Source: an uncultured Candidatus Binatia bacterium (GTDB taxonomy: Bacteria; Desulfobacterota; Binatia; Bin18). From it: DNA of 64,000 nt. Below, one piece after another: positions 38,125 through 61,332 of the stretch. Both the position numbers and the translations under genes were made by a program. The notes beneath the pieces are model-generated. The model was not told where the DNA came from and did not search any database. It saw only the letters and a program-made list of their open reading frames with translations. The stretch covers positions 1,668,749 through 1,732,748 of the forward strand of contig OZ241332.1 in the NCBI GenBank assembly GCA_965200125.1, written 5' to 3'. The number at the start of each line of letters is the position of its first letter. Positions within the stretch are counted from its first letter, which is position 1.

Positions 38125-38161
38125 CTCGACAAGATTGCCCTCGACCGGACGCACCTCCGCA

Positions 38162-39453: not shown

Positions 39454-39612
39454 TCCGCCGCTCCTCTCTCCTCCTCCGTTCTTCCGTCCCGGCCGCGGTC
39501 GAAACGCCCGGCCGACGAAACCCTCCCCCGACCTTCGGAGATGCACAGTCGGACGATGGTCTTGACCCTGTCGGTCGGAACGTCCTAGGCTTCCGCTGTC
39601 TTGGGGTGAGAT

Positions 39613-40080: not shown

Positions 40081-40112
40081 TCGGAGACCGTTGCAAGAAG
40101 GAGAGCTTCCAC

Positions 40113-40508
40113 ATGACGAGAACGTCCCCGAACTATTTTCTCGTACTCGGCCTCTGGCTGGTGTTCGTCTTCGTCTCACCGACCGCAGGTGTCGCGCAGT
40201 CCCTGTTCTCCGTTCGTCCGGATTCTGCCGGGTCCTTGCTCGGCGGCGACACCGCCTTGGAAGACGGCACGTTCGGAGACACGGAGACCGCCCCGGACGT
40301 GACGGACGAAAGCCTGGAAATGCGGATGCGCTACCCCGAACTCTACGACAGCGGCCTGACGCCCGACCTCGAGCGCAGCGCCACACCAGAGGATGCCGAA
40401 GTCAGTGGGGACGAGACTCTGGAAACTCAGGCCCGTTACCCGGAAATCTACCTCGAGAATCGGCTGTACGACGAAGATGACCTGCTCTCGATCGACCGAG
40501 AGGAATAG
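40113..40508 (+). CDS. hypothetical secreted acidic protein (131 aa)
   Basis: AAGGAGAG ribosome-binding site, signal peptide, then an Asp/Glu-rich repetitive region (LEMRMRYPELYD...LETQARYPEIYL). Confidence 0.55.
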   Translation: MTRTSPNYFLVLGLWLVFVFVSPTAGVAQSLFSVRPDSAGSLLGGDTALEDGTFGDTETAPDVTDESLEMRMRYPELYDSGLTPDLERSATPEDAEVSGDETLETQARYPEIYLENRLYDEDDLLSIDREE

Positions 40509-40583
40509 TGTCTCCCCAGTTCGTCAGCTAACGGACCAGTCGATATTGTTCTCAAATTCCGGGTGTGATACTTCACCAGCCGT

Positions 40584-40655
40584 GCCCCCGTGGTGAAATG
40601 GATATCACACAGGTCTCCGGAACCTGGGGTCTGGGTTCGATTCCCGGCGGGGGTA
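40584..40655 (+). tRNA. tRNA-Arg (anticodon CCG)
   Basis: Hand-folded cloverleaf. Acceptor stem GCCCCCG/CGGGGGT with a G1-U72 wobble, D stem GTGA/TCAC, anticodon loop CTCCGGA, T arm CTGGG-TTCGATT-CCCGG, discriminator A. Confidence 0.75.
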
Positions 40656-40705
40656 AATCCTCTCACCTCTCGTTTCACCCCATCTGAAACGCAGTCGCCT
40701 CGGCA

Positions 40706-41764
40706 ATGGCCATCCTCGTCACCGGAGGTGCCGGCTTCATCGGGTCGAACTTCGTTCTGGACTGGGTGCAGCAGTCCGACGAGCGTATCGTCAACCTCGA
40801 TAAACTGACCTACGCCGGCAATCTGGAAAACCTGGTCGAACTTGACGGCGACGCGCGTCACCTGTTCGTGCACGGCGACATCAGCGACCCACAACTGCTC
40901 GGAACGCTGTTCGCGGAACATCGGCCGCGCGTGGTCATCAACTTTGCGGCCGAGTCCCACGTCGATCGTTCCATCCACGGGCCGGAAGACTTCGTCACCA
41001 CGAACGTCGTCGGGACGTTTCGGTTACTGGAGGCGGCCCGCGACTATTGGAACGGTCTTCCGAAGCGTGAGCGGACGCGCTTTCGCTTCCTCCACGTTTC
41101 CACCGACGAGGTGTACGGTGCGCTCGCGCCGGACGACCCGGCGTTCACCGAAACGCACCGCTATCGGCCGAACAGTCCGTATAGCGCCAGCAAAGCTGCC
41201 GCGGATCACTTGGTGCACGCATACGTTGCCACCTACGGGCTCCCGGCGATAACGACCAACTGCTCGAACAATTACGGCCCGTACCAATTCCCGGAAAAGC
41301 TCATTCCGCTGGTCATACACAACGCCTTGGCAAGCGACCCCTTGCCCGTGTACGGCGACGGCCAACACGTGCGCGACTGGCTGTATGTACGAGACCATTG
41401 CCGTGCCCTCCGTCGGGTACTCGAGGCCGGGCGCTGTGGAGAGGTGTACAACATCGGTGGTCTGAACCAGAAAACCAATTTGGAACTCGTGTCCGACCTG
41501 TGCGACCTGCTCGACGAACTTCGCCCGAAAGCCGACGGCCGCTCGTATGCTTCTCAAATCACCTTCGTCAAAGACCGGCCGGGGCATGACCGGCGCTACG
41601 CTATCGACACCGCCAAAATAGAACGCGAACTCGCCTGGGCGCCGATCGAGACCTTTGCGAGCGGCCTACGCAAAACCGTGCAGTGGTACCTGGAACATCC
41701 CGCCTGGGTCGCCCACGTCACGAGCGGCGACTATCGCTGCTGGGTCCGCCAACATTACACATGA
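40706..41764 (+). CDS. rfbB: dTDP-glucose 4,6-dehydratase
   Basis: GGAGFIGS motif. Local GC is about 60%. Confidence 0.93.
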
Positions 41765-41771
41765 AGAACAC

Positions 41772-42680
41772 ATGAAGACGCTTCTATTCGGAGCCAATGG
41801 CCAAGTCGGCTGGGAACTGCGTCATTCCCTCACCTCTATCGGCCAAGTCAAAGCGTGCGACCGGCAAACAGTCGATCTTGAACGGCAGGACGAACTGCGA
41901 GCCGCGATTCGTGACTACCGTCCCGAGTTGATCGTCAACGCCGCGGCGTACACGGCGGTCGACAAAGCCGAAGCTGACCCGGACACGGCCAAACGGGTCA
42001 ACGCCGATGCCGTCGGACTCCTGGCGACCGAGGCGAAGCGGCTCGATGCCGTCCTGGTCCACTACTCGACCGACTACGTCTTCGACGGAACCAAAGTCGG
42101 GGCTTACGGAGAAACCGATACGCCCAATCCGCTCAACGTCTATGGTCGGACCAAGCTCGAGGGAGAGAAGGCTATTCGGGGCAGTGGATGTCGGCATTTC
42201 ATTTTTCGGACGAGCTGGGTGTACGCGCCGCGGGGTGTCAATCTCCTGCGCATCATACTTCGGATGGCCAAGGAACGGAATACGCTCCGCATCGTGGCCG
42301 ACCGGACAGGAACACCGGCCTCCGCCCGATTGGTCGCGCGTACCACGGCTCTCAGCCTGCAGAAATTCGCCCATGCCAAGAGAAGCACCGAATCTCTGCT
42401 GGGGACATATCACATAGCTCCGCCCGGCGTGACGAGTCCGTACGGGCTTGTCTGCCATCTGCTCCGGGAGGCGCAAAGGTCTGGCACCAAGCTTCGATGT
42501 CCCCCCGAAAACGTCCAGCCCATCACTGCTGCGGAATACCCACAACCAGCAAAACGGCCTGTGAATGGGAGGCTTGACACTCAAAAGCTTCGTTCGACCT
42601 TCAACGTTCGCCTACCCGCATGGCAGACTGAAATTCGCCAGACAGTCCAAGAAATCAACGGGCGGAATATGGAACGATGA
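41772..42680 (+). CDS. rfbD: dTDP-4-dehydrorhamnose reductase
   Basis: RmlD family ([10 protein letters not shown]...YSTDYVFDG). Confidence 0.9.
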
Positions 42681-43558
42681 CGCGCAGGGGTATTATTCTG
42701 GCGGGCGGATCGGGGACTCGGCTTTCCCCGATCACTCGGGCATTTTCCAAGCAATTGCTGCCCGTGTTCGACAAGCCCATGATCTATTATCCGTTGACCA
42801 CGCTGATGCTGGCCGGACTTCGAGAGATTCTGGTCATCTCCACCCCCCGCGACGCCCCGTTGTTCAAGGACATGCTGGGCGACGGGCGGCAATGGGGCAT
42901 CTCCATTCGGTACGCCGAGCAGCCTTCGCCCGACGGCCTCGCCCAAGCGTTCCTGATCGGCGTAGATTTTCTGGGCGACGCGCCGGCCGCCCTGGTCCTC
43001 GGCGACAACATTTTCTACGGCCATTCGTTTCACGAAATGCTTGCCGCGGCCCATGCCAGGGAAGATGGGGCGACGATCTTCGCCTATCACGTGCACGACC
43101 CGGAACGGTACGGTATCGTAGAGTTCGACGCGAACGGGCGGGTCCTCAGTCTCGAAGAAAAGCCCTCGCAGCCAAGATCCAGTTTTGCGGTGACCGGCCT
43201 GTATTTCTACGATCGCCACGTCGTGGAATACGCCGCGCGGCTCGAACCTTCCGCTCGCGGCGAGTTGGAAATCACGGATCTGAACCGTTGTTATCTCGAA
43301 CGCGGCACGCTCTCGGTTCAACGTCTGGGAAGGGGCTACGCCTGGCTGGATACCGGCACGCAGGAAAGTCTGCTCGAAGCCAGCCAATTCGTCCAGACCA
43401 TCGAGCACCGGCAGGGGCTGAAGATCGCCTGTCCCGAAGAGATCGCCTACCGGAAGCGATGGATCGACGCCCGGCAAATGGAAACGCTGGCCGCGATGAT
43501 GGAAAAAAGCAACTACGGACGCTACCTGCGCCGAGTCCTGCACGAGGTCGGGGCCTGA
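42677..43558 (+). CDS. rfbA: glucose-1-phosphate thymidylyltransferase
   Basis: [12 protein letters not shown] motif. ATGA overlap with rfbD. Confidence 0.93.
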
Positions 43559-44109
43559 TGAAAGCGACGCCACTGGCTATTGCGGACGTGATCCTGCTCG
43601 AACCGCGGGTTTTCGAGGACGAACGCGGCTTCTTTTTCGAGAGCTTCAATCAGCAAGCGTTCGAGCGAGCCTGCGGACACGCCCAGATTTTCGTACAGGA
43701 CAATCATTCCAGGTCGAGCCGTGGCGTGCTGCGCGGCCTGCATTACCAACTCCCGCCCAAGGCCCAGGGCAAACTCGTGCGCGTAGTGTACGGCCAAGTC
43801 TTCGACGTGGCGGTCGACATCCGCCGCGGTTCGCCCACCTATGGCAACTGGGTCGGAGAACGTCTGTCGGCCGAGAACAAGCGGCAACTCTGGATACCCG
43901 AAGGCTTTGCACACGGATTTCTCACACTTTCCGACGCAGCCGAGGTCATCTACAAGACGACCGAGTTCTATGCCCCGGAACTGGAACGCTGCATTCGCTG
44001 GGACGACCCGGTCATCGGGATCAAATGGCCTGTGACGCCCTCGGTGTCGAGCCTGTCGGCCAAAGACGCCGAAGCTACCCCTTTCGTCGATGCCGAACCA
44101 TTCACTTGA
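43558..44109 (+). CDS. rfbC: dTDP-4-dehydrorhamnose 3,5-epimerase
   Basis: RmlC cupin fold. TGATG overlap with rfbA. Confidence 0.9.
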   Translation: MKATPLAIADVILLEPRVFEDERGFFFESFNQQAFERACGHAQIFVQDNHSRSSRGVLRGLHYQLPPKAQGKLVRVVYGQVFDVAVDIRRGSPTYGNWVGERLSAENKRQLWIPEGFAHGFLTLSDAAEVIYKTTEFYAPELERCIRWDDPVIGIKWPVTPSVSSLSAKDAEATPFVDAEPFT

Positions 44110-44202
44110 ACGCATCGGGGATCATCGACCGGGACAAAGGCCCGGCGTCCAGACCACCCTGCTGAACCTTACAAATTAGAAATAGAATTCTAATTTACAC
44201 AT

Positions 44203-44800
44203 ATGTTGCTCCGGAAAGTATTGCCTACGCTTCGTGCCCGCTTGGACGCTCATCCCGCCGTTGCACTGGTCGAGCCGCATCAAGGTGAAAACAGGAAAAA
44301 GTTTAGGACTTTCCTACCACACGGTGAACAACTACGTGGACTATCTGGAAGGGGCCTTTCTCGTCCGCCGGCGGCCTCCCTATTCCGCGAATATTCGCAA
44401 ACGGGTCATCAAACGCCCCAAGCTCTACTGCGCGATACGGGCCTTCTCCATGCCCTGTTGAGCGTACGAGACCGGACACCTTGTTGAACCAACCCTGGGT
44501 TGGGGCGAGTTGGGAGGGATTCGTCATTGAAAAGATCTTGGCGGCGTTGCACTGTACAGACCGCCCGTTCGATGCGTATTATCTGCGCACCAGCGATCAG
44601 TGAGAAATCGATTTGTCATCCAGATGGATGCAAAGTTATGGGAACTGAAGATCAAGCTCACAGCGCGCCCGAGTTTCGACGATATGGCACGACTCGACGC
44701 AACCGCGGACCTCGCCCATGCGGATCGGCGGTTCCTCGTCTTCAATTCGGTGATTTCATCGAGAGTGATCCCTGGATCATCTGCAACATCCAAAGCCTCA
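44203..44800 (+). pseudogene. degenerate 3' remnant of an AAA+ ATPase with DUF4143 domain
   Basis: DUF4143-like pieces are spread over three frames with frameshifts and a stop (YHTVNNYVDYLEGAFLVRRRPPYSANIRKRVIKRPKLY / LRDTGLLHALL / WEGFVIEKILAAL / DAKLWELKIKLT). The N-terminal ATPase domain is absent. Confidence 0.65.
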
Positions 44801-45021
44801 TAAACTTCGTTGAGCGGAGGCATTAAATTCGAAAGTCTCGCAAATACCCATCGCACAAACATTTCGGCCTACTTACTAGGGTGTCCAACAACGCCTCATA
44901 TATCTTCTGGCGGCAAATGCCGCATAGTTATATTGGTGGCGCGTGGACTGAATCTACAGATTTGCAGGAGCGGGATTTCCTGCCTACCCCCGCACAACAG
45001 AAAGTCGATCCCCGCGTCTCT

Positions 45022-48000
45022 TTAATAGTAACGCTTAAGCCATTTTGACGAATTGGTATGTTCCTTGATATAAGATGAACCTAAATGGGATACATATTTG
45101 AGGTACGATGAATTTTCTTTAACATAAAAAGGATGGGGAAACATCAATTGAAGTTCGAATTTCTTCCTATAATATTCACGATGTACGTCAGATATAATAA
45201 CTCCGTTGTCGTAACGGGAATATATCCATTCTGATTTCCATTCTTTGTAAGATCTTAAAAACCATTTCACCGTATCGTCGTATTCGGATATCAATGATTC
45301 GAGATCCTTAGTGAATCGTCCGAAAACATCAAACATAGTTCGGGGAACGCCGAGATCGTAGCCGGAGAAATGGAAGAATATGAGAGGGTCATTGCCTGAG
45401 AACCAACAATTATTCCTTCGGGATATCGGCCTGTAAGATATATTCCATGATGCAGTGTTACAGCCTTCGTGCTTCAGCACTTTGATGCCCTCGAAAAAGA
45501 TAGGGACATGATTGAACCACTTTTGATCAGTGAACAGACCGCGGGCGTGGTCGTCTTGACAGTATCTCAATAGTCTTCTGGACCAAAAATCGATCACTTC
45601 ACGTGCTTTTTTTCCTCGCTTGAATCCGACGAAGCCCAGATTGAAAACACCATGCGCCAGAGAGGATATCTCGTTGTAATGAATTTCGGCATCTCGAATC
45701 GCTTTTTGGGTACAATGAGGAGTAAGTAATACTTCGCACTCTGCCATTTCGTCCACGAGAGCCTCGAGATCGCTATAGGCGTATGTATCCGGGTCGAAGT
45801 AGAACACATATTCATATCCTCTGTCCAACAGATATTGCGAATAAAATGGCTTGGTCGCTGTGCATAATTCCACAACATTGTGCGAGAATATCCAACTGTG
45901 GAGAGAGGGTATCCCTAGGTGGGAGATCGGAAAAACGGCGTCTATGCCCGGCCAATTTGAGGCACTGTCCGGGACGAAGTCATTCAACAATATATGGGTC
46001 TCCCAGTCCGGATTATGCCTCTTGACCGACCGTGCCCAAGAAAGCGCTTTTGGCAGATAACGTAGACTAATAGAGGTGAAAGCCGCAATCTTCGACTCGA
46101 ATTTCGGTTCGGGATCCGGCCCAGGAGACGACTCGTTCCCAAGATATTTCATCAATCGTGCAGTCTTTTCGGATTCCCGCCCCTCCCCGTCTTTCCTCTT
46201 GTCCGCGAAGGGTAGATTCGCTCGCCGAAAAGCTTTTCCCATTAAGTGGCGCGCATGATCGTCAATAAGACCCATATCCGAGATGCCATAGATTTCAAGG
46301 ATCGTGTTCCGTTGAATATTTAGATATTCTTCAGCTTCGAAGTGGGATTCGAGACGCTTTTGGTTTTCTAGTCGTGGGGGCACATGAAACACACTCGTGA
46401 CTTCTCCGACCAATAGCACGCGGCATCGAATGAGCATCTGCATCCAGAACAACCAATCCTCTAGGGCGTCGAGGTTCTCGTCCAATCTATCAGACGAGAG
46501 ACGCGATGTCCGGCGGAACAGAACTGCTTGAATTGGAAAGTAATTGCAATGGAACAACTCTCCGGGAGAAGACAGGAAAGGGAAGAATATGGTGCTTGGG
46601 CCGGTTTTGCCCAGACGCATGTCCCCTTTCTCCAACAGCGCCTCTACCTCCTTACTTGCAGCATATACAGCACCGGCCTCCGGTCGCTTCAACAAACGGG
46701 CTACAAGCAACCCACAATGATTCTCCAGGAGATAATCGTCATCGTCGAGAAATCCAATGAAATCTCCATCTGCATGATCGAGTCCGAGGTTTCCGGCTGC
46801 TGAACGGCCCATCTTCTTGCCCGTCGCAACATGCTTGAAGCGGCACCTGTCATCTCCAGCATTCAGAGCAGCTATCTTATCAGACAATTCACCAACTCCG
46901 TCTTCTGCTACAATTACTTCGATAGGACGATAGCGTTGGTTCTTGATCGATTCGAGAGCGATCCGAGTTAGCGGCCACCGTCCAGCGTAGGTACGCAAGA
47001 CAATTGTCACTAGCGGGCCGGTAGAAACCGGCTCGACGTCGATCTCGCTCTTATCGACCGGCCCATCATCATCGGGGGACGAAAGCGCCGCCGCAATCAC
47101 TCGGATATAGTTTCCCTGCTCTCGAAACGAATCTAGATCCCAATGGCCATCGGGAGGAATAGGATGCTTCGTAGAAAAGTCATCATCAAGTGGAGAAACC
47201 TGCGGTTGGTCACCCAGATCGCCTTCCGTCGCCGCAAGCGGTGGAGGCTGTAACACGCGATAGGCACGTCTGGGGGCACGTGACGACACCGCCGTGAGCA
47301 GCAGTCCTTTGATCCGCAGTTTGAATGCCGGCGAAAGCGGAGCTCGATGATATATCCATCGGGCGCTCTGACGGGCATTCGCTCGCACGCGGGTGGCCGA
47401 CGAACGTATTACTTGCATCGCATCTCGAAGAGGAGACGTGACCCTCCAACTACGGGAAGCGTACAGTTCTGCGATCCACCTACCCCGTGCCGCCACCGCA
47501 TTGTTCAACTCTCCTATCTCCTCGTCCCGTGCCGCCACCGCATTGTTCAACTCTCCTATCTCCTCGTCCCGTGCCGCCACCGCATTGTTCAACTCTCCTA
47601 TCTCCTCGTCCCGTGCCGCCACCGCATTGTTCAACTCTCCTATCTCCTCGTCCCGTGCCGCCACCGCTCGTTTACTCGTAACTAAAGCTTGGCTAAAAGC
47701 TGGCGTTGCTGCATCAAAGGCTGACTTGATCCTCTCGATATTCGTTATATCCTCCCCACCTACCTTTCCGTAACACCATTGTTCCAGAATGTTGAAGCTT
47801 GATACCACCCAACGAGAAAGTCTTGGATTAGCTGCAAGCGCGGAATCGTCGGTGGCATGGTGGCGTAATCTAAAGGTAAGAAATTTGTCGATTTCCGCTT
47901 GAACATGAACCGCGTCACTGTGTGGCCACGAAATATCAAGAGCATTTCCCAGCCTGTCCACGGTTGCTTGGGGGTTAGAAAGTAGCATTTCGTATCGCAA

Positions 48001-48540
48001 ATACACGCGCTTAATAGAACGTGAATCTGTCTCAGCATCGAGAACGTGCCGCAACCAGAGAAGATATCCGATAGAAGGATCAATGCTATCGCGCACCTCT
48101 AAAGACAGAGCGACATCAAGAGGGTTCCGGATCGGCGAGACAATAAGAGGATTCGTGCCAAAAGTCCTCACTGCATCAATCCAGAAGGGAAGTAATCGAC
48201 ATATCCTCGGATCCTTCAGAACAAATAAAGGGCTGTCGCCAAATTCATTTTTTAGAATCGTTTGAGCGCGATCGCGAAAGGGGTCGGCAATGGAAGAAAC
48301 GTACCAGCGTGGATCGAAGCTCTCCCAGTCATCCCAGGCCGACCCTGCAGATTCAAGAATCTCATCATTCAAAGCTACGATTGAATCCGACTCCCAGTGT
48401 CCGGCTTCATTAGAGGGACTGGCGCCCATCAAGGTTCTCGGTAAATCACAGCCAACCAAATGCAAGACGCGGGTGACGGCCGACGTCCCGCTCCGGTGCA
48501 TCCCGACAACCAGAATGGCCACCTTTTTCTTCTGGTCCAT
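45022..48540 (-). CDS. 1172-aa multidomain glycan-synthesis protein: N-terminal sulfotransferase, coiled-coil with tandem 14-aa repeats, GT2 domain, C-terminal second GT-A-like nucleotide-sugar transferase domain
   Basis: The sulfotransferase has PAPS-binding motifs 5'-PSB (VVGMHRSGTS) and 3'-PB (RNPLDVALS). Four repeats (ARDEEIGELNNAVA) sit in a predicted coiled coil. The GT2 domain has a DDDD DxD motif. The C-terminal domain has an FDPD motif. GC falls from about 52% in the sulfotransferase part to about 40% in the GT parts. Confidence 0.8.
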   Translation of the reverse strand: MDQKKKVAILVVGMHRSGTSAVTRVLHLVGCDLPRTLMGASPSNEAGHWESDSIVALNDEILESAGSAWDDWESFDPRWYVSSIADPFRDRAQTILKNEFGDSPLFVLKDPRICRLLPFWIDAVRTFGTNPLIVSPIRNPLDVALSLEVRDSIDPSIGYLLWLRHVLDAETDSRSIKRVYLRYEMLLSNPQATVDRLGNALDISWPHSDAVHVQAEIDKFLTFRLRHHATDDSALAANPRLSRWVVSSFNILEQWCYGKVGGEDITNIERIKSAFDAATPAFSQALVTSKRAVAARDEEIGELNNAVAARDEEIGELNNAVAARDEEIGELNNAVAARDEEIGELNNAVAARGRWIAELYASRSWRVTSPLRDAMQVIRSSATRVRANARQSARWIYHRAPLSPAFKLRIKGLLLTAVSSRAPRRAYRVLQPPPLAATEGDLGDQPQVSPLDDDFSTKHPIPPDGHWDLDSFREQGNYIRVIAAALSSPDDDGPVDKSEIDVEPVSTGPLVTIVLRTYAGRWPLTRIALESIKNQRYRPIEVIVAEDGVGELSDKIAALNAGDDRCRFKHVATGKKMGRSAAGNLGLDHADGDFIGFLDDDDYLLENHCGLLVARLLKRPEAGAVYAASKEVEALLEKGDMRLGKTGPSTIFFPFLSSPGELFHCNYFPIQAVLFRRTSRLSSDRLDENLDALEDWLFWMQMLIRCRVLLVGEVTSVFHVPPRLENQKRLESHFEAEEYLNIQRNTILEIYGISDMGLIDDHARHLMGKAFRRANLPFADKRKDGEGRESEKTARLMKYLGNESSPGPDPEPKFESKIAAFTSISLRYLPKALSWARSVKRHNPDWETHILLNDFVPDSASNWPGIDAVFPISHLGIPSLHSWIFSHNVVELCTATKPFYSQYLLDRGYEYVFYFDPDTYAYSDLEALVDEMAECEVLLTPHCTQKAIRDAEIHYNEISSLAHGVFNLGFVGFKRGKKAREVIDFWSRRLLRYCQDDHARGLFTDQKWFNHVPIFFEGIKVLKHEGCNTASWNISYRPISRRNNCWFSGNDPLIFFHFSGYDLGVPRTMFDVFGRFTKDLESLISEYDDTVKWFLRSYKEWKSEWIYSRYDNGVIISDVHREYYRKKFELQLMFPHPFYVKENSSYLKYVSHLGSSYIKEHTNSSKWLKRYY
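47486..47667. repeat. perfect 42-bp tandem repeat (4.3 copies) inside the multidomain gene
   Basis: The unit cgtgccgccaccgcattgttcaactctcctatctcctcgtcc encodes the in-frame 14-aa heptad repeat ARDEEIGELNNAVA. Copies are 100% identical. Confidence 0.9.
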
Positions 48541-48543
48541 CGT

Positions 48544-49305
48544 TCAGACTCCAACGACTCGACCGTACTCCCCCGCCACATCCTCGATCGGCCCGCTGGC
48601 CCGAACCCGCCCGGCGTCAAGCAAAATCCCCTTCGTACAGATACGACCCAAGAGGTCAAGATCGTGCGAGGCCAGCACCAGTATCCCCGCACAGTCGATG
48701 AACGCATCGAGCCGGCGTTTGGCTTTCTCGACGAACGCGGCGTCTCCGACGCTGAGCCACTCGTCCATGAGCAAGATATCTGGTTTGATGCAGGTGGATA
48801 CCGCGAACGTGAGTCGCATCAACATTCCCGTCGAGTAGGTCCGGACAGGCAGGGCCAAGTATTCCCCAAGTTCGGAGAACTCGGCAATCTCTTCCGTGCG
48901 CTGCTGTATCTCCTTCGGCGTGAGTCCGAGTAGCAACCCGCACGTCACGATGTTCTCATAGCCGGTCGTTTCATGGTCCATCCCCAGGCCGACATCGATC
49001 AGCGAAGTCACCCGCCCATGTCGCCAGACCCGCCCCTGCAGCGGCTCATACACACCCGCCAGCACGCGCAGCAGCGTCGTCTTGCCCGAACCGTTGTGAC
49101 CGAGCAGACCGACGCGGTCACCGTGCTCGATCGTTAAGCTCACGTCTTCGAGTGCCCGGACGCAGAGCACGCTTTCGGCATTATTCCCGATGCGCCCACC
49201 CGTCCCCCTGTGCAACAGGCTGGTCTTCAGCGAACGTGTCCGCGCGCTGTAGATGGGAAAGTCGACCGTGACGCCTTCGAGTCGGATGGTAGCGAAGGTG
49301 CTCAT
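48544..49305 (-). CDS. wzt: ABC transporter ATP-binding protein Wzt/TagH-like (NBD only, no C-terminal carbohydrate-binding module)
   Basis: 253 aa from MSTFATIRLEG. Walker A GHNGSGKTT. ATGA overlap with wzm. Confidence 0.85.
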   Translation of the reverse strand: MSTFATIRLEGVTVDFPIYSARTRSLKTSLLHRGTGGRIGNNAESVLCVRALEDVSLTIEHGDRVGLLGHNGSGKTTLLRVLAGVYEPLQGRVWRHGRVTSLIDVGLGMDHETTGYENIVTCGLLLGLTPKEIQQRTEEIAEFSELGEYLALPVRTYSTGMLMRLTFAVSTCIKPDILLMDEWLSVGDAAFVEKAKRRLDAFIDCAGILVLASHDLDLLGRICTKGILLDAGRVRASGPIEDVAGEYGRVVGV

Positions 49306-50078
49306 ACCCAATAGGCGAGACGTCCACGACGGCCGGTGTAGAAGATCAACATCACAATCCATCCCCCCAGCGTGACGCCGAGTGTCGCGAGCCACGTGGT
49401 CACCTCCGGCACCTGTCCGAGTAACGGCGCGCGCACCACCTCCAAAAGATAGAAGAATGGGTTCATGTCCAACACGAGCGCCCGATCGGGCAGAAGCTCG
49501 GGTTTCCATAATACCGGCGTGAGAAAAAAAGCGACCTGCACGGCGCTGGCAACCACCTGCGGCACGTCGCGGAAACGGGCAGACAGGAGACCGAGCAAGA
49601 GCCCTATCCATACGCCGTTCAGACAGAGGATCGCCAAGCCCGGAACCGTGAGCAGTCCGGCCCAACCCGGACGGACCGAAAAGAGGACGGCTACGACGAT
49701 GAAGATGACGACGTTATGGGCGAAGATGACGAAGTTGCGCCACACGGCTCGGTACACGTGAACGGATAGAGGCAGCCTGACTTGTTTGATGATGCTCTCC
49801 GCCTCAATGAAGGCCGTACAGCCGTCGGTGATCAAACCGGAGATCAAACCCCACACGACGAATCCGGCGGCAATGAATGGCAGATAATTTGCAATCTCGA
49901 CCTTGAACAAAGCTGAATACAACACTCCCAACGCACCGACCAGCACGCCCATACTGATCGTGAGCCAGAATGGTCCGAGTTTCGAACGGCGATACCGTTG
50001 GCGGATGTCCTGCCAGCCCAGCCGCCCCCAGAGATACGGTGAGCACGCGCCTTGGATGATGTCCGATAAGGCGGTCAT
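49302..50078 (-). CDS. wzm: ABC-2 type polysaccharide export permease Wzm/KpsM-like
   Basis: 258 aa from MTALSDIIQG. Six transmembrane helices of ABC-2 topology. Confidence 0.8.
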   Translation of the reverse strand: MTALSDIIQGACSPYLWGRLGWQDIRQRYRRSKLGPFWLTISMGVLVGALGVLYSALFKVEIANYLPFIAAGFVVWGLISGLITDGCTAFIEAESIIKQVRLPLSVHVYRAVWRNFVIFAHNVVIFIVVAVLFSVRPGWAGLLTVPGLAILCLNGVWIGLLLGLLSARFRDVPQVVASAVQVAFFLTPVLWKPELLPDRALVLDMNPFFYLLEVVRAPLLGQVPEVTTWLATLGVTLGGWIVMLIFYTGRRGRLAYWV

Positions 50079-50208
50079 TCGTATGCTGAATCCAGGGGGC
50101 GAGGAGAAGCGAGCGTGCTGTTCAACGTCATATCGTGCCGGGGCCGGACGTGTCCGAACCCTGCGGAACCGGATTTTCACTGGCAAGTGCCATACGGCCC
50201 CGACGCTG

Positions 50209-50649
50209 TCATCTCGAAGCGAACGGGTCACGGGTACGGAGTTCTGGAAACAGGGAGAAGTCACGGTCGCGCGTCAGCAACGCCTCCGCACCGTGCGCGA
50301 CACAGACTGCCGCAACCCGGGCATCGTGTACGACGCCTCCGATGACCCGCAGACGCTGGACGAACCCGCTCAGGATGTCGAGGAAGTCGTCGACCTCGCC
50401 CATCAGACGGTTCGACGGCGACACAGCCCAGGCGTGGAGTTGTCTCCATGCGCGTTCCGGCGTCGTTGCAGCGTCTTTCCAGATCCGGCGGTTCGTCACG
50501 ACGATCAGGAACTCGTAACAGCACGGCCACGGAATCGCCCAGGCGTGGGTGCCTTCGGCGAGTTCGCGCACGACCGCCGCGGCGGTCTCGTGCATGCTCG
50601 ACTCCCGGCGGTATGCATAGACGAGGAGGTTGGTATCGACCGCAATCAT
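50209..50649 (-). CDS. vapC: PIN-domain toxin VapC
   Basis: The sequence MIAVDTNLLVYA supplies the conserved Asp. PIN fold. ATGA overlap with the upstream antitoxin gene. Confidence 0.8.
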   Translation of the reverse strand: MIAVDTNLLVYAYRRESSMHETAAAVVRELAEGTHAWAIPWPCCYEFLIVVTNRRIWKDAATTPERAWRQLHAWAVSPSNRLMGEVDDFLDILSGFVQRLRVIGGVVHDARVAAVCVAHGAEALLTRDRDFSLFPELRTRDPFASR

Positions 50650-50894
50650 CTCGCTTCCGGCGGGCCGTAGATGATTTCTCGCAAGTCCTGCCAAGTATAT
50701 GCTTCGAGTGGGTCGTGTTTTCCCGCCCTTCCCGCGCTCCAGTCCGGCAACCGATATTTCGGGCTCGCAGGTGCGGGGGCAAGCACGAGGCGGAGTCCGT
50801 CTTCGACGACCGCGCCGAGTGGACGGCCCGTTTTTCGGGCGTGACGCTTTGCCCGCACAAGCAGGGCCTCATGGGTATCCAAGGTCGTCTTCAT
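50646..50894 (-). CDS. vapB: VapB-type antitoxin
   Basis: About 82 aa (MKTTLDTHEALLVRAKRHARKTG...), upstream of and overlapping vapC. Confidence 0.7.
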   Translation of the reverse strand: MKTTLDTHEALLVRAKRHARKTGRPLGAVVEDGLRLVLAPAPASPKYRLPDWSAGRAGKHDPLEAYTWQDLREIIYGPPEAR

Positions 50895-51073
50895 GTGTGC
50901 CAGCCTACCCATATCGAGCAATATGGCAAGACCAGGAAATTCGAGGTTGCAGGTTCGCCGCACGGGTCGAAAAACGCTCGTGCCGGCGGTTTGTACTTCC
51001 GCGGCGTTTGCGCTACAGGCGGAAGAAATCCCACCCCGCGCGAACGCAGGCAACCCAAAAGGAGGGACGCGCC

Positions 51074-52195
51074 ATGTTACTCGGGAGAATCATCGACGCG
51101 GACGGCCACGTGCTGGAGCCGCCCGACCTGTGGAAGGACAATCTGGAGGCCAAGTACAAGGACCGCGCGTTGGGTCTGTGCGACGACGAGGAAGGCTGGG
51201 AATGCCTGAAGATCGACGGGCAGATCTCGCCCGTGATTCGCGGCATGGGGATCGCGTCCGCGTTCGGCAAGCCGGGCGAGGTCGCGTTCTCCAAGGAGTT
51301 CCGCTACATGGACGGTCCCAAGGGCGCCTACGACCCGCACGAGCGCGTCAAACAACTCGACGCCGACGGCATCGACGCCGCGGTCCTGTACCCCACGATC
51401 GGCCTGCTGTGGGAGGAGGAAGTCGCCGACCCCGACCTCTCGTTGGCTTACAACCGGGTGTACAACGACTGGATCGCGGACTTCTGCAGCCACTATCCCG
51501 ACCGCCTGTACGGCGCGGCCCACATTTCGCTGATCGACCCGGAGAAAGCCGTTGCGGAGTTGAAGCGCGCTGCCAAGCTAGGGCTCAAGAGCGTCATGCT
51601 CACCCCCTTCCCCACCAACGGGAAGGCGTACGGCGATACGTCCTACGACCCGTTCTGGGCCGCGGCGCAGGACCTGAACATGCCCGTCGGCCTGCACGTG
51701 GTGGCTCGGCCGAACTTCCACGGCAGCAAGTGGTACGACCACCCGACGTTTCACGGCTCGCCGTTCTACTTTCTGTCGGTGACGCTGGGCTTCGACATCC
51801 AGGCGTCGTTCGTCAGCATGTTCGAGGGCGGCACGCTGGACCGATTTCCGCATCTCAAACTGCTCGTGCTGGAAGTGGGCGCCGGTTGGGTGCCGCATTT
51901 CATCGAACGGATGGACAGCAAGTGGGACCACAGCGGCTTCATGACGGCCTGCAAGCTGCGGCCGAGCGAGTACTTTCGGCGTCAGGTGTGGGTCGGCTGC
52001 GACCCGGACGAAAGCATGATTCCCCCGGCCGCGGCGCGCTGGGGTTCGGACAAGTTCTTCTGGTCCACCGATTTTCCGCACTTCGACGGCTTCCCGGACG
52101 CGCTCGACACTCTACAGAACGGCATCAAGGAGCTGCCGCCGCCCGACCGCCAGAACGTGCTGGGCGACAATGCGACCCGGGCCTACGGGCTGTAG
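51074..52195 (+). CDS. amidohydrolase-2 family metal-dependent hydrolase (ACMSD/o-pyrocatechuate decarboxylase-like)
   Basis: AAAAGGAGGGA ribosome-binding site. DADGHVLEPPDLW N-terminus and an HxH...D metal-ligand pattern (PF04909-like). Confidence 0.8.
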   Translation: MLLGRIIDADGHVLEPPDLWKDNLEAKYKDRALGLCDDEEGWECLKIDGQISPVIRGMGIASAFGKPGEVAFSKEFRYMDGPKGAYDPHERVKQLDADGIDAAVLYPTIGLLWEEEVADPDLSLAYNRVYNDWIADFCSHYPDRLYGAAHISLIDPEKAVAELKRAAKLGLKSVMLTPFPTNGKAYGDTSYDPFWAAAQDLNMPVGLHVVARPNFHGSKWYDHPTFHGSPFYFLSVTLGFDIQASFVSMFEGGTLDRFPHLKLLVLEVGAGWVPHFIERMDSKWDHSGFMTACKLRPSEYFRRQVWVGCDPDESMIPPAAARWGSDKFFWSTDFPHFDGFPDALDTLQNGIKELPPPDRQNVLGDNATRAYGL

Positions 52196-52230
52196 GTTCG
52201 CAGAGTCGGGGGAAAGATCGTCCGTCATTA

Positions 52231-52257
52231 CGGGCCGCCGAACGGCGGCCCGTTTTT
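52231..52257 (+). terminator. rho-independent terminator of the amidohydrolase gene
   Basis: cgggccgcc-gaac-ggcggcccg is a perfect 9-bp GC stem followed by TTTTT. Confidence 0.8.
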
Positions 52258-52410
52258 CGTGAAGCGTGACGGTCTCGACCTCCTCCGGTCGTCATTCCCG
52301 TGCAGGCGGGAATCCCGGACGTGGATACCTGCTTGTGCAGGTATGACGGAAAATTCGCCCTCGGACCGTCTTGTATAGAAGAATTCCCTCTCGACAGCAT
52401 GCGGCCTTTC

Positions 52411-52536
52411 GATCCTTGGACCATTCGACAAGCTCGGGACATCGCAGGCTCAGGACGCCGTAGGTTCAACGAACTGAGGGTTGGAGAAGGTCTCTGAATT
52501 TGCGGTGCCTTGAGCTTGTCGAATGGTCCAAGGATC
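52411..52536. repeat. MITE-like palindromic element with 26-bp perfect terminal inverted repeats
   Basis: The arm cgatccttggaccattcgacaagctc (52411-52436) matches the reverse complement of 52511-52536, around a loop of about 70 bp. The core 16-mer CCTTGAGCNTGTCGAA recurs at 52593-52612 (reverse complement), 52650-52665 and 30563-30578. Confidence 0.7.
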
Positions 52537-52589
52537 GAAATGAACCCCAAGGAGATTACCGCTCTCGCACGCTGCCCCCGCCCTCGGCC

Positions 52590-52680
52590 TTTCGACAGGC
52601 TCAAGGACCTTCCCCGCTTCCCCCCTCAGTTCGTTGACCCTGCGTCGCCTTGAGCGTGTCGAAGGGGTAAAAGGTCCCCT
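52590..52680. repeat. second, inverted and partly degraded copy of the same palindromic element
   Basis: Arms cctttcgacaggctcaagg and ccttgagcgtgtcgaagg. The loop shares cctcagttcgttgacc (inverse) with the loop of the first copy. Confidence 0.55.
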
Positions 52681-52732
52681 ACCCGCGCACCAGCTTTTGC
52701 AGGCTGATGCGGAACGGCTCGACGTAGCCGGC

Positions 52733-53683
52733 TTAGCGCGGATAGACGGCCCGTTTCAGCACGGCGTGGATGCGCGGCAGGCGGTAGAACGGAATCGACG
52801 GATAGAGGTGGTGCTCCAGGTGATACCCCACCTGTTTGGGAGCGAAGAAGAAGCGCAACGCCGCGGACATGAAGTACGTCCGCGTCCGTTGGTAGGCGTT
52901 GTCCGGGTCGGGAACGTTGCCGTGTTCGATGGCGCCCCGGATGCGGAAGAAGACCTGCATCAGCGTGCAGTACGGCACCAGCCAGTACAGCACGAACAGC
53001 CCGCCGAAGGTCTAGCCTGCCACGCCGAATCCCACCGCCAGCACCACCGCCCAGCACGTCGCAAAGCGGCGCATGTCGGTCGTTTGCGCATAGCCCGCCG
53101 CTCCCTCCTCCCCGAGGAACCGCCGGTTGAATTGCCCGGTCACGAACGGAACGTCCGCGAAATACTTGAGCGTCGAGACCACGTTCAACCCGCACACGTC
53201 GCGCAACAGGAGCCGCCGGAGCTTCTTCGCAGCGAGCGGATAGCGCGCGTAAATGGCCCGGTCCGGGTCGTCCGCGGTATGCGTGTGCCGGTGGTGTTGC
53301 AAATGGATGAACGCCCACTTGGACAGCGAGATGAACACCGGGAAGGTGGCGACGTACCGGCCGAGGCCGTCGTTGACCCAGGGGTTGGCGGACAGGCGTT
53401 TATGGATGGCCTCGTGTCCGAGGACCATCAGCGCGTGCTGCCGGGAAGCGACGACCGCGACGGCGAGAACGTAGCCGGCTACGGAGACCAACGTCGCCCA
53501 GCCCGTGGACAAACCCTCCACGGCGTGGGGAATCGCCCACGCGCCGAGCCAAACGGCCAGTCCGACGACCAGCCAGATTTCGCACAGATGGTACACGCCG
53601 CGTGCGGTGGACACGCGCGACAGCAGTTTCACGGCCCGATGGACGTCCGCAGGGCCGGCGACCGCGGCCTCGTCCGTTCGCAT
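52733..53683 (-). pseudogene. membrane fatty-acid desaturase interrupted by an in-frame TAG at 53012-53014
   Basis: His boxes HEAIHKRL and HLQHHRHTH lie upstream of the stop, and the third box HLEHHLYP lies downstream of it in the same frame. The combined length is about 316 aa. Confidence 0.7.
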
Positions 53684-53788
53684 GGCGGAGGACGTATCGC
53701 AAACGACGTTGCAGCGGCAAGCCGGGCGGGCGCGTGGTTTGCGATTCCCGGCCGAACTGGATAAGACACCCACGAAAGGCGGACGCTC

Positions 53789-54595
53789 ATGCCACACACC
53801 CACGTCAACGGCATCAAGCTCCACTACACTCGCCAAGGCCGCGGCCAGCCGCTCTTGCTGATTATGGGACTCGGCGGGCCGGCCGCGGCGTGGGACCGCG
53901 AATTTCTGCGGCAAATGGCAACGGACTACGAACTCGTCACGTACGACAATCGCGGCACCGGCCAATCCGACAAGCCGGACGAACCCTATTCGATTGCGTC
54001 GTTCGCCAGCGACGCCGTCGGCCTGCTCGACGCCCTGGAGATTCCCCGCGCCCATGTCTTCGGCATCTCTATGGGCGGCATGATCGCCCAGGAAATCGGC
54101 ATCGAGCACCGCGGGCGCATCGCCAGCCTGACGCTCGGCTGCACCACCCCGGGTGGCCGCCACGCGGTGCCGGCCCCGCCCGAATCCATGGCGGCCCTCG
54201 AGGCGCGGCCCGGCCAGACGCCGGCCGAGGCCATCCGCGACGGCTGGAAATTGTCGTACAGCCGGGACTACATCGCCGCCCACCGGGACGAACTCGAAGA
54301 CACGCTGCGCCGCGTTCTGGAACACCCGACTCCGCGTTTCGCCTACAACCGCCACCTGGACGCGACCATGACGCTGCACGTCTATAAGCGACTCAAGGAG
54401 ATTCAGGCGCCCACGCTGGTCGTCACCGGGCGTGACGACGTCCTCATTCCCGCGGCCAACTCGGAGATTCTCGCGCGCGAGATTCCCAACGCCACGTTGC
54501 GCGTCTTCGACAACGCCGGGCACGGTTTCGTATCCTCCGCGCGCGAGTCGTTCGTTCGGGTGTTGCGGGACTTTCTCGCGCAACACGCCATGTAA
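53789..54595 (+). CDS. alpha/beta-fold hydrolase
   Basis: GISMGG nucleophile elbow and an HGF terminal motif. It is divergent from the desaturase gene. Confidence 0.8.
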   Translation: MPHTHVNGIKLHYTRQGRGQPLLLIMGLGGPAAAWDREFLRQMATDYELVTYDNRGTGQSDKPDEPYSIASFASDAVGLLDALEIPRAHVFGISMGGMIAQEIGIEHRGRIASLTLGCTTPGGRHAVPAPPESMAALEARPGQTPAEAIRDGWKLSYSRDYIAAHRDELEDTLRRVLEHPTPRFAYNRHLDATMTLHVYKRLKEIQAPTLVVTGRDDVLIPAANSEILAREIPNATLRVFDNAGHGFVSSARESFVRVLRDFLAQHAM

Positions 54596-54650
54596 CTCGC
54601 GATGGTTCCGGGGCCGCACGAGTGGAAGACCGCTTCGAGTACAGCACCGG

Positions 54651-56202: not shown

Positions 56203-56240
56203 GGCGCATGCCGCCCGGCACCCAGACTGGAGGACCTCCC

Positions 56241-57446: not shown

Positions 57447-57475
57447 CGACCGCACGCCGCTTCCCGGAGATTCCC

Positions 57476-61290: not shown

Positions 61291-61332
61291 GCGTGCAGTT
61301 CTGCCTCGGCACTCTACAGGAAGACTTCCACT

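Follow-up and report, generated by a model that had tools for sequence, protein, structure and literature searches.

A candidate sulfate-capping, coil-ruled glycan polymerase: a sulfotransferase, coiled-coil and dual-glycosyltransferase fusion encoded beside a CBM-less Wzm/Wzt exporter

For WbbB of Klebsiella O12 and ORF6 of Klebsiella O7, it is experimentally established that the terminating enzyme lies beyond a coiled coil and that the polymerising glycosyltransferases are placed C-terminally (PMC11231755). ORF6 of Klebsiella pneumoniae O7 is built from a methyltransferase-kinase terminator, a coiled coil and two GT2 modules (PMC11231755), and WbbB of Klebsiella pneumoniae O12 and Raoultella terrigena from a GT99 Kdo-transferase terminator, a coiled coil and a GT102+GT103 polymerase. 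Every characterised terminator system has a carbohydrate-binding module (CBM) on its Wzt (PMC11231755). The locus described here, found in a 64,000-nucleotide stretch of DNA from an uncultured Candidatus Binatia bacterium (the window), encodes a protein of 1172 residues with a sulfotransferase-fold head, a coiled coil, a GT2 module and a GT8-like module (Table 1). An earlier note on this DNA had drawn the parallel to WbbB and to WbdD/WbdA, and profile, fold and context support it; the analogy is sound because the layout matches those of WbbB (Klebsiella O12) and ORF6 (O7).

With wzm and wzt, the 1172-aa gene makes up an operon of tight, translational coupling that adjoins the dTDP-rhamnose genes. 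wzm and wzt overlap by the ATGA that had been noted before, and 3 nt separate the wzt stop from the start codon of the 1172-aa gene. The latter had been placed directly upstream of wzt and wzm, but the coding-strand order is wzm, wzt, 1172-aa gene, so that it lies downstream of wzt. The rml genes, said to be 1 kb away, are convergent with it on the opposite strand, 913 bp from its stop codon, and match the Pfam families GDP_Man_Dehyd/Epimerase, RmlD_sub_bind, NTP_transferase and dTDP_sugar_isom (E 1e-75 to 1e-95). The best NCBIfam matches of the exporter are the galactan-export permease Wzm/RfbD (304 bits, under the 380-bit cut-off) and the galactan-export Wzt/RfbE (292 bits, under the 400-bit cut-off). 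As the earlier note had recognised, Wzt is an ABC domain without a CBM: Pfam ABC_tran covers residues 51-183 with no other domain, the nucleotide-binding domain runs straight into the stop codon (C-terminal extension 0), and the same absence is seen in all close relatives. Set against the CBM of all characterised terminator systems, this makes the locus an exception. Genes for an initiating transferase, an adaptor glycosyltransferase or a ligase are absent from the window. Most likely, the locus is a compact ABC-transporter-dependent surface glycan pathway for an O-antigen-type, rhamnose-containing polymer.

Table 1. Features of the locus, with coordinates in positions of the window.
Feature	Position	Strand	Basis
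rmlB, rmlD, rmlA, rmlC: dTDP-L-rhamnose synthesis	40706..44109	+	Pfam matches
Strain-variable cassette	44809..48586	.	blastn vs related strains L088, L089
Single 1172-aa ORF: sulfotransferase / coiled coil / GT2 / GT8-like	45022..48540	-	
GT8-like (retaining GT-A) module, residues ~818-1172	45025..46089	-	profile + fold
GT2 (inverting GT-A) module, residues ~506-790	46171..47025	-	Pfam Glycos_transf_2
Basic, partly amphipathic linker after SWRVTSPLR, residues 373-505	47026-47424		
Conserved post-coil motif SWRVTSPLR, residues 364-372	47425..47451	-	
Coiled-coil spacer, residues ~264-363 (~100 residues), candidate ruler of ~150 Å	47452..47751	-	
Perfect 42-bp tandem array, 4.4 copies, encoding AVAARDEEIGELNN x4	47484..47667	.	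TRF, 100% matches, score 368
Sulfotransferase-fold domain, residues 1 to ~263	47752..48540	-	
wzt, exporter ATPase, 252 aa, no C-terminal carbohydrate-binding module	48544..49302	-	Pfam ABC_tran only
wzm, ABC-2 permease of glycan exporter, 258 aa	49302..50078	-	Pfam ABC2_membrane, E 2.5e-14

The protein has no predicted transmembrane segment (maximum Kyte-Doolittle score 1.39). Its spacer is helical in the AF2 model from residue 264 through the model end and matches Pfam PKcGMP_CC (E 2e-10) as well as, by profile, the coiled coil of gp26, the tail needle of P22. The perfect 14-aa heptad repeats reported earlier are indeed there, as four copies of AVAARDEEIGELNN (residues 292-347) encoded by the 42-bp array, which in the 90% relative L002 is collapsed into a 100-N gap. 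The motif behind the coil, [ST]W[RK]x[TS]xP[LIVMF]R, recurs in 80 of 120 homologues and in every orthologue in which the region is present. In the GT2 module, Pfam Glycos_transf_2 (E 2.3e-16) spans residues 514-627 and Glyco_tranf_2_2 reaches residue 708; the DDDD singled out before (residues 599-602) sits in FLDDDDYL, which, together with LEDWLFW, is invariant in nine orthologues. The last module, previously described as GT-A-like with an FDPD motif, is GT8-like by profile (GT8 structure 3tzt, E 1.4e-7; glycogenin) and by fold (AF2 model with pLDDT 90; Foldseek matches to glycogenin, LgtC, GlyE, the GT8 domain of WbbM, and LARGE1), and both its DxD FDPD (residues 915-918) and its FFHFSG (residues 1055-1060) are invariant. 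More than 1400 homologues of this module exist, most of them stand-alone and of ~390 aa. Of the domain families expected by the earlier note, Glycos_transf_2 and, marginally, Sulfotransfer_3 were recovered, while a Pfam search of the GT8-like module gave no match and its assignment came from the other profile and the fold.

The sulfotransferase-coil module is a member of a very large and uncharacterised family whose fusion partners are many sets of glycosyltransferases; its sulfotransferase domain shows 45-59% identity across more than 100 proteins with differing C-terminal sets (RgpF, WbsX, GT2, GT4). Across 80 homologues, the spacer between P-loop and SWRxTxPLR ranges from 323 to 842 residues. 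Of 89 family genes, 25 have a tandem array in frame behind the sulfotransferase domain, and in all but one of these (24/25) the period is divisible by 21 or 33 nt (heptads or hendecads). The closest relatives in other lineages have wzm-wzt (65-72% identical) directly upstream, and distant family members have as neighbours Wzt proteins equipped with Wzt_C, the cap-reading module. At locus L071, rmlACBD is followed by sulfotransferase-coil (529 aa), wzm and wzt-CBM, in that order, the sulfotransferase-coil gene being the sole one in that run that is neither rml nor transporter, and at L080 wzm and wzt-CBM are followed by a sulfotransferase-coil-GT2-GT2 gene. The L071 protein and the 471-aa pB protein of Cereibacter sphaeroides are stand-alone, without glycosyltransferases. 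In the wider family, a Wzt-like ATPase lies within 10 kb at only about a third of the loci, and the neighbours often include additional sulfotransferases and methyltransferases.

Among related strains, the 1172-aa gene behaves as an exchangeable cassette. On either side of it (35362-44808 and 48587-58435), L088 and L089 share 92-96% identity with this DNA. The interval between these flanks, essentially the 1172-aa gene with the final ~45 bp of wzt, is unalignable by blastn, and it alone within the locus is not shared with the two strains. The corresponding cassettes carry, on the opposite strand, a sulfotransferase-WbsX-RgpF gene (1114 aa) in L088 and a sulfotransferase-WbsX-GT4-GT2 gene (1522 aa) plus a methyltransferase in L089. 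Horizontal acquisition, as the earlier note suggested for the locus, is strongly supported by these alignments, narrowed to one gene replaced in two related strains. The compositional contrast was overstated at ~40% GC in the glycosyltransferase modules versus ~67% genome-wide: the gene has 49.8% against 64.2% for the window (GT8-like 44%, GT2 51%, sulfotransferase 49%), and 39% is reached in just one 500-bp window.

We propose that both glycosyltransferase modules would lie near the membrane and alternately lengthen a lipid-linked chain, probably of a disaccharide repeat such as α-L-rhamnose plus α-D-hexose, with the coil keeping the sulfotransferase head ~150 Å away. On meeting the head, the growing non-reducing end would be sulfated from PAPS and further extension blocked, and the length of the coil would then determine that of the chain, on the model of WbdD, WbbB and Klebsiella O7 ORF6. 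Once complete, the chain would leave through Wzm/Wzt, with export not gated on the cap because this exporter has no cap-reading module, and each 42-bp unit gained or lost would lengthen or shorten the ruler by two heptads, or ~21 Å. Taken whole, a sulfate-capped, coil-ruled glycan, made by the glycosyltransferase modules and exported by a cap-independent Wzm/Wzt, is in our judgement an even call. We infer the sulfate-terminated, ruler-controlled polymer with circumstantial support from the hypervariable coil length of the family, from array periods in multiples of heptads or hendecads, and from the distant members that adjoin Wzt proteins with Wzt_C.

Since Wzt is CBM-less in this locus and in all its close relatives, export does not require a cap, and this break with the rule of terminator systems leaves room for a sulfotransferase that decorates internal or repeat-unit sugars instead. 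The coil would then serve mainly for oligomerisation or as a scaffold, and length would follow from polymerase-exporter coupling and stoichiometry, as in Klebsiella O2a. In the CBM-less system that has been characterised, extension goes hand in hand with export, and the proportion of transporter to synthase determines length (PMC11231755). Here wzm, wzt and the synthase gene, coupled through the ATGA overlap and the 3-nt gap, would be expressed in a fixed stoichiometry. It is not evident, however, why a decorating enzyme would need a long rigid spacer, and the sulfotransferase consistently stands at the far end of a variable coil, which is the position of the terminators in all characterised cases. 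The tandem arrays in multiples of heptads or hendecads point, moreover, to selection on coil length. The extra sulfotransferases and methyltransferases beside wider-family members are typical of decoration, and the terminal modification of Klebsiella O1 exists without control of length or export, but some family members do adjoin CBM-bearing Wzt proteins. Decoration is possible on this evidence, though we hold it to be rather unlikely.

The PAPS-type sulfotransferase proposed in the earlier note is supported by motifs and fold. The 5'-PSB motif GMHRSGTS occupies residues 13-20 and the 3'-PB motif RNPLDVALS residues 138-146, with the R-x7-S spacing of the SULT motif RNPKDTAVS, and in fold comparison the head groups with sulfotransferases, well apart from P-loop kinases. 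Its Pfam Sulfotransfer_3 match (residues 9-206) is marginal at 27.7 bits versus a cut-off of 27, a sequence profile of the head retrieved no PDB sulfotransferase with a significant E value, solved sulfotransferases share just 10-17% identity with it, and no PAPS-synthesis genes were seen in the neighbourhoods of family members. The marginal match and the failure to detect PDB sulfotransferases by sequence would also suit a head that is not an active PAPS-dependent sulfotransferase, being either a degenerate nucleotide-binding or regulatory domain or an enzyme that moves some other group, for instance phosphate, and known terminators do include kinases (WbdD, O7 ORF6). This is improbable, given that the 5'-PSB (xHRSGTS), the 3'-PB (RNPxxVxxS), E50 and K109 are invariant or nearly so in 40 homologues at 35-62% identity and that the head has no Walker GxxxxGK[ST] motif.

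That separate genes were fused into this ORF by faulty assembly or annotation, a concern raised by its misassembly-prone perfect repeat and by the N-terminal truncation of both other members of its 90% identity cluster (838 and 798 aa), is most improbable, because the four-part protein announced by the earlier note is encoded in one unbroken frame, independent full-length orthologues (P0002-P0009; 52% identity for P0002, 40% for P0009) are collinear across all four parts, the sulfotransferase-coil-glycosyltransferase layout is common to more than 100 other proteins, and L002 (~90-91% identity) is short because a 100-N scaffold gap sits exactly at the repeat, upstream of which sulfotransferase-coding DNA resumes at 90% identity.

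Returning to a capping head on a coiled-coil ruler, the sulfotransferase shares fold, 5'-PSB and 3'-PB motifs with the Sulfotransfer_3 group (TPST / Stf / HS-OST), from which the present family differs in its fusion to coiled coils and glycosyltransferases; LpsS, a characterised bacterial LPS sulfotransferase, is annotated to a different family, Stf0. Among the fold matches of the GT8-like module is mammalian LARGE1, itself a dual-glycosyltransferase polymerase with a GT8 domain, and HNK-1 sulfation of the LARGE1 product caps its elongation. This product, matriglycan, is reported to be 3-O-sulfated on glucuronic acid by the HNK-1 sulfotransferase (Sheikh et al. 2020). The parallel is an analogy only, to a eukaryotic system of separate proteins in the Golgi lumen with no homology overall.

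As in our locus, the Wzt of Klebsiella O2a/O1 is CBM-less, and the terminal pyruvate of O1 is needed for neither export nor length control; that system, however, has no coiled-coil terminator, and its polymerase, WbbM, pairs a GT111 with a GT8 module. WbdD, with WbdA in E. coli O9a and Klebsiella O3, shares the coiled-coil molecular ruler and the distal terminating enzyme, and the stand-alone sulfotransferase-coil proteins of L071 and Cereibacter sphaeroides mirror its format, whereas WbdD is a kinase and methyltransferase that recruits a separate polymerase and whose cap must be recognised by the CBM for export. WbbB unites polymerisation, termination and chain-length control in one protein with the same N-to-C order of parts, and its product is a disaccharide repeat with L-rhamnose, as ours probably is; its terminator, in contrast, is a glycosyltransferase adding β-Kdo that is read by the Wzt CBM, where we find a candidate sulfate cap, no CBM and other glycosyltransferase families. 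From O7 ORF6, our protein differs in a head of sulfotransferase fold rather than methyltransferase and kinase, without an Ig-like domain, in a GT8-like second glycosyltransferase, in a Wzt without CBM, and in a coil that is partly a perfect tandem DNA repeat. Like ORF6, it is a single polypeptide with an N-terminal chain-modifying enzyme, an extended coil and C-terminal polymerising GT2-type modules, in a Wzm/Wzt-dependent locus whose polymer contains rhamnose (most likely so in our case), and both families include orthologues with or without glycosyltransferase modules. By this analogy, a sulfate cap at the chain end is plausible and would be a new chain-end chemistry on a known architecture.

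At the centre of the locus lies one open frame whose product joins a sulfotransferase-fold head (residues 1-263), a coiled coil, a GT2 module and a GT8-like module on a single polypeptide. The observation is real and beyond chance, and we read it as a new variant of a known design: a sulfotransferase-headed candidate terminator-ruler-polymerase served by an exporter whose Wzt has no carbohydrate-binding module (CBM), carried on a single-gene, exchangeable cassette. The earlier note had proposed a sulfate-terminated, ruler-controlled glycan polymerase, a reasonable interpretation whose architecture is supported and which as a whole is supported in part. The features discussed are collected in the table.

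Coordinates of the synthase locus, its surroundings and features of related loci
Feature	Sequence	Position	Strand	Remarks
Synthase gene	window	45022-48540	-	single open frame, 1172 codons
wzt	window	49302-48544	-	252 aa, ABC domain only
wzm	window	50078-49302	-	ABC-2 permease
rmlB, rmlD, rmlA, rmlC	window	40706-44109	+	convergent with the synthase gene
42-bp tandem array	window	47484-47667		4.4 copies, 100% identity
SWRVTSPLR	window	47425-47451		residues 364-372
PIN-domain (VapC-like) gene	window	50212-50649	-	directly upstream of wzm
Decayed AAA_14/DUF4143 ATPase gene	window	44203-44814		left junction of the variable cassette
Flank aligned with L088/L089	window	35362-44808		92-96% nucleotide identity
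Interval unalignable to L088/L089	window	44809-48586		synthase gene and last ~45 bp of wzt
Flank aligned with L088/L089	window	48587-58435		92-96% nucleotide identity
CofH-like radical-SAM and CofD genes	window	4-2089	+	coenzyme F420 biosynthesis
Long ORF, 377 aa	window	13461-14594	-	coding-like GC3, no Pfam match
Long ORF, 832 aa	window	61000-63498	+	coding-like GC3, no Pfam match
rmlA-C-B-D	L089	5672-9119
rmlA-C-B-D	L002	6500-9951
Genes for sulfotransferase-GT2-coil protein (771 aa) and stand-alone GT8-like protein (408 aa)	L084	9962-13461		directly after CBM-bearing wzt
Genes for stand-alone sulfotransferase-coil protein (471 aa) and 821-aa RgpF-family protein	L090	8231-13440		Cereibacter sphaeroides 2.4.1 plasmid pB

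On the minus strand the order is wzm, wzt, synthase gene, with an ATGA overlap joining the first two and 3 nt separating the wzt stop from the ATG of the synthase gene. The synthase gene thus closes an operon, wzm-wzt-synthase, whose members are tightly coupled. The earlier note had set it upstream of wzt and wzm, where strand order puts it downstream; its other statements on the operon held, namely the ATGA coupling, the rmlBDAC genes at ~1 kb (913 bp from the stop codon of the synthase gene by our measurement) and the CBM-less Wzt, which has no C-terminal extension and no Wzt_C match. The top curated-model matches of both Wzm and Wzt were to the CBM-less galactan exporter pair of mycobacteria, each under its equivalog cut-off. 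Scans for promoters and terminators gave no signal exceeding shuffled controls. Cytochrome oxidase genes lie on one side of the locus and hydrolase/oxidoreductase genes on the other, and no further glycosyltransferase genes were seen in its flanks within the window. The organism is Gram-negative, as marked by LpxD and an AsmA-family gene; its otherwise Gram-negative genome also carries, at the edge of the window, the CofH-like and CofD genes, and two of the window's long ORFs are devoid of Pfam matches. The PIN-domain gene next to wzm is 95% identical to its copy in L088, a metagenomic contig from a related strain, and is missing at the same position in L089, a second such contig, where ~900 bp are absent.

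These two contigs share the chromosomal neighbourhood of the window, and the interval that cannot be aligned to them corresponds almost exactly to the synthase gene. In its place, on the opposite strand, L088 carries a gene for a 1114-aa sulfotransferase-WbsX-RgpF protein, and L089 one for a 1522-aa sulfotransferase-WbsX-GT4-GT2 protein together with a methyltransferase gene, while the C-terminal extension of Wzt is absent from both. Across the three alleles the sulfotransferase domains show only ~50% identity to that of the window. Clustering at 90% identity leaves the synthase with 3 members, as opposed to 20-39 for the flanking genes. In GC content its gene (49.8%; GT8-like module 44%, GT2 51%, sulfotransferase 49%) falls below both the window as a whole (64.2%) and wzm, wzt and the rml genes (58-61%). 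The swapped interval, the cluster sizes and the low GC together make horizontal acquisition well supported, as had been claimed from the sequence alone, although the GC values then offered (~40% versus ~67%) had the right direction and were too extreme. The ATPase gene at the left junction, intact in L088 (382 aa), is reduced in the window to residues 1-27 and ~204-364, in different frames. The rml operon occurs in two versions at one chromosomal site, rmlB-D-A-C in the window and L088 and rmlA-C-B-D in L089 and the related locus L002, with a nucleotide identity of just 76-77% for rmlA; L002 pairs a window-type synthase with the second version.

In the protein, the GT2 module (residues ~506-790) was matched by Pfam with an E value of 2e-16 (PF00535, 60.6 bits against a cut-off of 23.3), and its DxD motif, DDDD at 599-602, is invariant, as are FLDDDDYL and LEDWLFW in the orthologues. 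The C-terminal module (~818-1172) gave no Pfam match from its own sequence, and we call it GT8-like, rather than a GT8 family member, because of this; of the Pfam families anticipated by the earlier note, Glycos_transf_2 was recovered for the GT2 module and none here. A profile built from 37 homologues of the domain matched the GT8 structure 3tzt (E value 1.4e-7) and glycogenin, and a structural model (pLDDT 90) resembles glycogenin, LgtC, GlyE, the GT8 domain of WbbM and LARGE1, the first three found by Foldseek with E values of 2.5e-8 to 3e-7 and TM-scores of about 0.42-0.58. Its FDPD (915-918) and FFHFSG (1055-1060) motifs are invariant, among them D916, D918 and H1057. We infer that the two modules act as a polymerase. 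No transmembrane segment was predicted anywhere in the protein.

The head directly precedes the coiled coil (~264-363), whose helix starts at residue 264 and which is supported by matches to a Pfam coiled-coil family and, in a profile search, to the coil of gp26. Within it, residues 292-347 form four perfect copies of AVAARDEEIGELNN, a 14-residue pair of heptads encoded by the 42-bp array. Such arrays recur in the family: of the 89 genes examined, 25 carry a tandem DNA repeat in frame behind the head, with periods that are multiples of the heptad (21 nt; 42, 63, 84, 168 or 189 nt) in 18 genes and of the hendecad (33 nt; 33, 66, 198 or 264 nt) in 6. Copy numbers reach 11, and several coil-coding arrays are 97-100% perfect, with near-perfect identity in the related loci L001, L005 and L086, which suggests that copy number changes frequently. 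This pattern is the one expected of a length-variable coiled coil. The P-loop of the head and the SWRxTxPLR motif behind the coil lie 323 to 842 residues apart, the 351 of the window protein being near the short end. Both the variable spacer and the heptad-periodic arrays are indirect evidence that coil length may determine chain length. That motif, followed in the window protein by a basic linker, is kept as [ST]W[RK]x[TS]xP[LIVMF]R right after the coiled coil in 80 of 120 homologues, whichever glycosyltransferase modules come next; it is possibly a docking site for the membrane or a partner.

The family to which the head belongs is large. A head-only query retrieved 5,138 representatives of 50% identity clusters at E ≤ 1e-30 and 13,799 at E ≤ 1e-10, and at least 588 species-level genomes, mainly of Alpha- and Gammaproteobacteria, encode a relative. 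Among the best 120 whole-protein matches the heads are 45-59% identical and are followed by coils of widely differing length and by varied C-terminal glycosyltransferase sets (RgpF, WbsX, GT2, GT4 and others), sometimes with methyltransferases. Around the nearest heads from other lineages (L001, L005, L085, L086 and L087), wzm-wzt lies directly upstream in every case, with 65-72% identity to the window's genes and a Wzt of 252-254 aa without the extension, and a GT2 gene of ~300 aa usually stands between wzm-wzt and the sulfotransferase gene. The wzm/wzt linkage is kept in these five and in L088 and L089, so that the CBM-less exporter travels together with the sulfotransferase-coil-glycosyltransferase gene. 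Wzt_C was found only beside three distant members of the family: L071 (gene order rmlACBD, sulfotransferase-coil of 529 aa, wzm, wzt-CBM), L080 (wzm, wzt-CBM, sulfotransferase-coil-GT2-GT2) and L084 (wzm, wzt-CBM, sulfotransferase-GT2 protein, stand-alone GT8-like gene). Apart from the rml and transporter genes, the run in L071 contains only the sulfotransferase-coil gene, which is thus the obvious candidate maker of a cap read by the CBM. L084 holds the same parts in another arrangement, its 771-aa protein having the order sulfotransferase, GT2, C-terminal coiled coil, and its stand-alone GT8-like gene encoding 408 aa with 37% identity to the window's domain. Stand-alone sulfotransferase-coil proteins also occur among distant members. 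On plasmid pB of the model organism Cereibacter sphaeroides 2.4.1, the gene for one such protein follows that of a 'rhamnan synthesis F family protein' (RgpF-family, 821 aa), with one hypothetical gene between them and no wzm/wzt within 12 kb; it could serve as a tractable test system for the function of the family. In ~40 diverse loci (140 neighbour genes), RmlB/RmlD-type enzymes, methyltransferases, further sulfotransferases and glycosyltransferases are enriched among the immediate neighbours, which include nucleotide-sugar genes; adjacent ABC transporter genes occur in only some, and PAPS-synthesis genes are absent from the top neighbour families.

The most likely mechanism, which we believe about as much as we doubt, is the sulfation-terminated, coil-measured synthesis of a rhamnose-containing polymer exported by the CBM-less Wzm/Wzt. 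Working together at the membrane, the two GT-A modules would probably assemble, on a lipid carrier, a disaccharide repeat that contains rhamnose; on their predicted specificities, the inverting GT2 could add α-L-rhamnose from dTDP-β-L-rhamnose and the retaining GT8-like module an α-linked hexose. The coil, with ~100 residues and a length of roughly 150 Å, would keep the head distant from the membrane. Once its non-reducing end was sulfated, the chain would grow no further and would be exported with its cap unchecked. Each 42-bp unit added or removed would then alter the ruler by two heptads. In the main rival explanation, the sulfotransferase decorates the chain and length is set by coupling between polymerase and exporter, as in Klebsiella O2a. 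The missing CBM and the tight translational coupling of wzm, wzt and the synthase gene favour such decoration. Against it stand the position of the head at the distal end, the heptad-periodic coil of hypervariable length and the relatives linked to a CBM-bearing Wzt, and we regard it as the less probable of the two.

That the head is inactive, or not a sulfotransferase, is improbable. Its 5'-phosphosulfate-binding P-loop, GMHRSGTS (residues 13-20), has R16, S17, G18, T19 and S20 invariant across 40 homologues, and its 3'-phosphate-binding motif, RNPLDVALS (138-146), in which R138, P140 and S146 are invariant, aligns with RNPKDTAVS of SULT7A1 in a profile alignment whose E value is not significant. 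The domain has the sulfotransferase α/β fold, and E50 (in HWE, invariant) and H15 (nearly invariant) are candidates for the catalytic base. Pfam PF13469 scored 27.7 bits on it, against a cut-off of 27.0, and no sulfotransferase model matched in NCBIfam. Single-sequence PDB searches with the N- and C-terminal domains found nothing meaningful, profile searches with the whole protein were dominated by coiled-coil and GT2 matches, and those with the head alone gave SULT matches, all sub-significant. By motifs and fold the head is a probable member of the PAPS-dependent sulfotransferase superfamily, Sulfotransfer_3-like, with PAPS-dependent sulfuryl transfer as its predicted activity. The Sinorhizobium LPS sulfotransferase LpsS was considered as a family member and rejected, as it is annotated as Stf0, a different family.

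An assembly artefact is highly improbable, and the possibility raised in the earlier note that the frame is a fusion of several genes was not borne out, since the homologues P0002 (52% identity) and P0009 (40%) align with the protein over its full length. In the 91% identical relative P0001 (838 aa), which begins at residue 335, the sulfotransferase might seem to be a separate gene; we rejected this, as a 100-N scaffold gap falls exactly at the 42-bp array and explains the truncation, and sulfotransferase-coding DNA continues upstream of it at 90% identity.

We propose, tentatively, that a PAPS-derived sulfate cap, a repeat-tuned coil ruler, CBM-less export and a swappable one-gene cassette amount to an undescribed bacterial termination chemistry. 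If so, termination would be uncoupled from export proof-reading, cassette swapping would offer bacteria a way to change their surface glycan, and glycan length control of this kind would be widespread and unrecognised, given more than 5000 sequence clusters in the head family. If the head is a terminator, sulfate would be a new cap chemistry, and thousands of 'sulfotransferase family' proteins from environmental Proteobacteria, Acidobacteria and others would gain a function. The head family is very large and uncharacterised, the proposed cap chemistry is open to direct test, and the perfect 42-bp array is a directly testable natural mechanism of ruler tuning. For glycoengineering, one synthase gene with wzm/wzt and rml could give length-defined, end-sulfated rhamnose-containing polymers. 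Should the sulfotransferase only decorate, the locus would still be a clean example of serotype switching through replacement of one multidomain gene.

The coiled-coil-ruler paradigm comes from a small number of O antigens of enterobacteria, with methyl, phosphomethyl or Kdo caps. A coil serves as molecular ruler in these terminator systems, whose polymerising glycosyltransferases may reside in the same polypeptide, as in Klebsiella O12 WbbB and O7 ORF6, the latter having two GT2 modules besides a methyltransferase-kinase and a coil, or be recruited separately, as WbdA is by WbdD (PMC11231755). The CBM of Wzt binds the terminal epitope in all terminated examples, while the CBM-less O1/O2 transporter couples extension to export, the terminal pyruvate of O1 being dispensable for export and length control (PMC11231755). 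A terminating head in the window protein would work without CBM-gated export and thus be an exception to this rule. In the literature searched we found no paper tying sulfotransferases to WbdD-type termination, although the terminator survey of Mann, Kimber and Whitfield (2019) may hold an earlier mention. In the O-antigen cluster of Aeromonas salmonicida an unexplained gene for a 216-aa sulfotransferase-domain protein adjoins wzt and the gene of a WbbB homologue (PMC4483657), a hint that such pairings had already turned up and gone uninterpreted. The parallel drawn in the earlier note to WbbB and WbdD/WbdA holds for the architecture and fails for the CBM: with WbbB, O7 ORF6 and WbdD the window protein shares the N-terminal position of a chain-modifying domain, here a candidate terminator, the extended coiled coil, the polymerising modules and the linkage to wzm/wzt, whereas it differs from them, as do all its close relatives, in a Wzt without a cap-recognising CBM.
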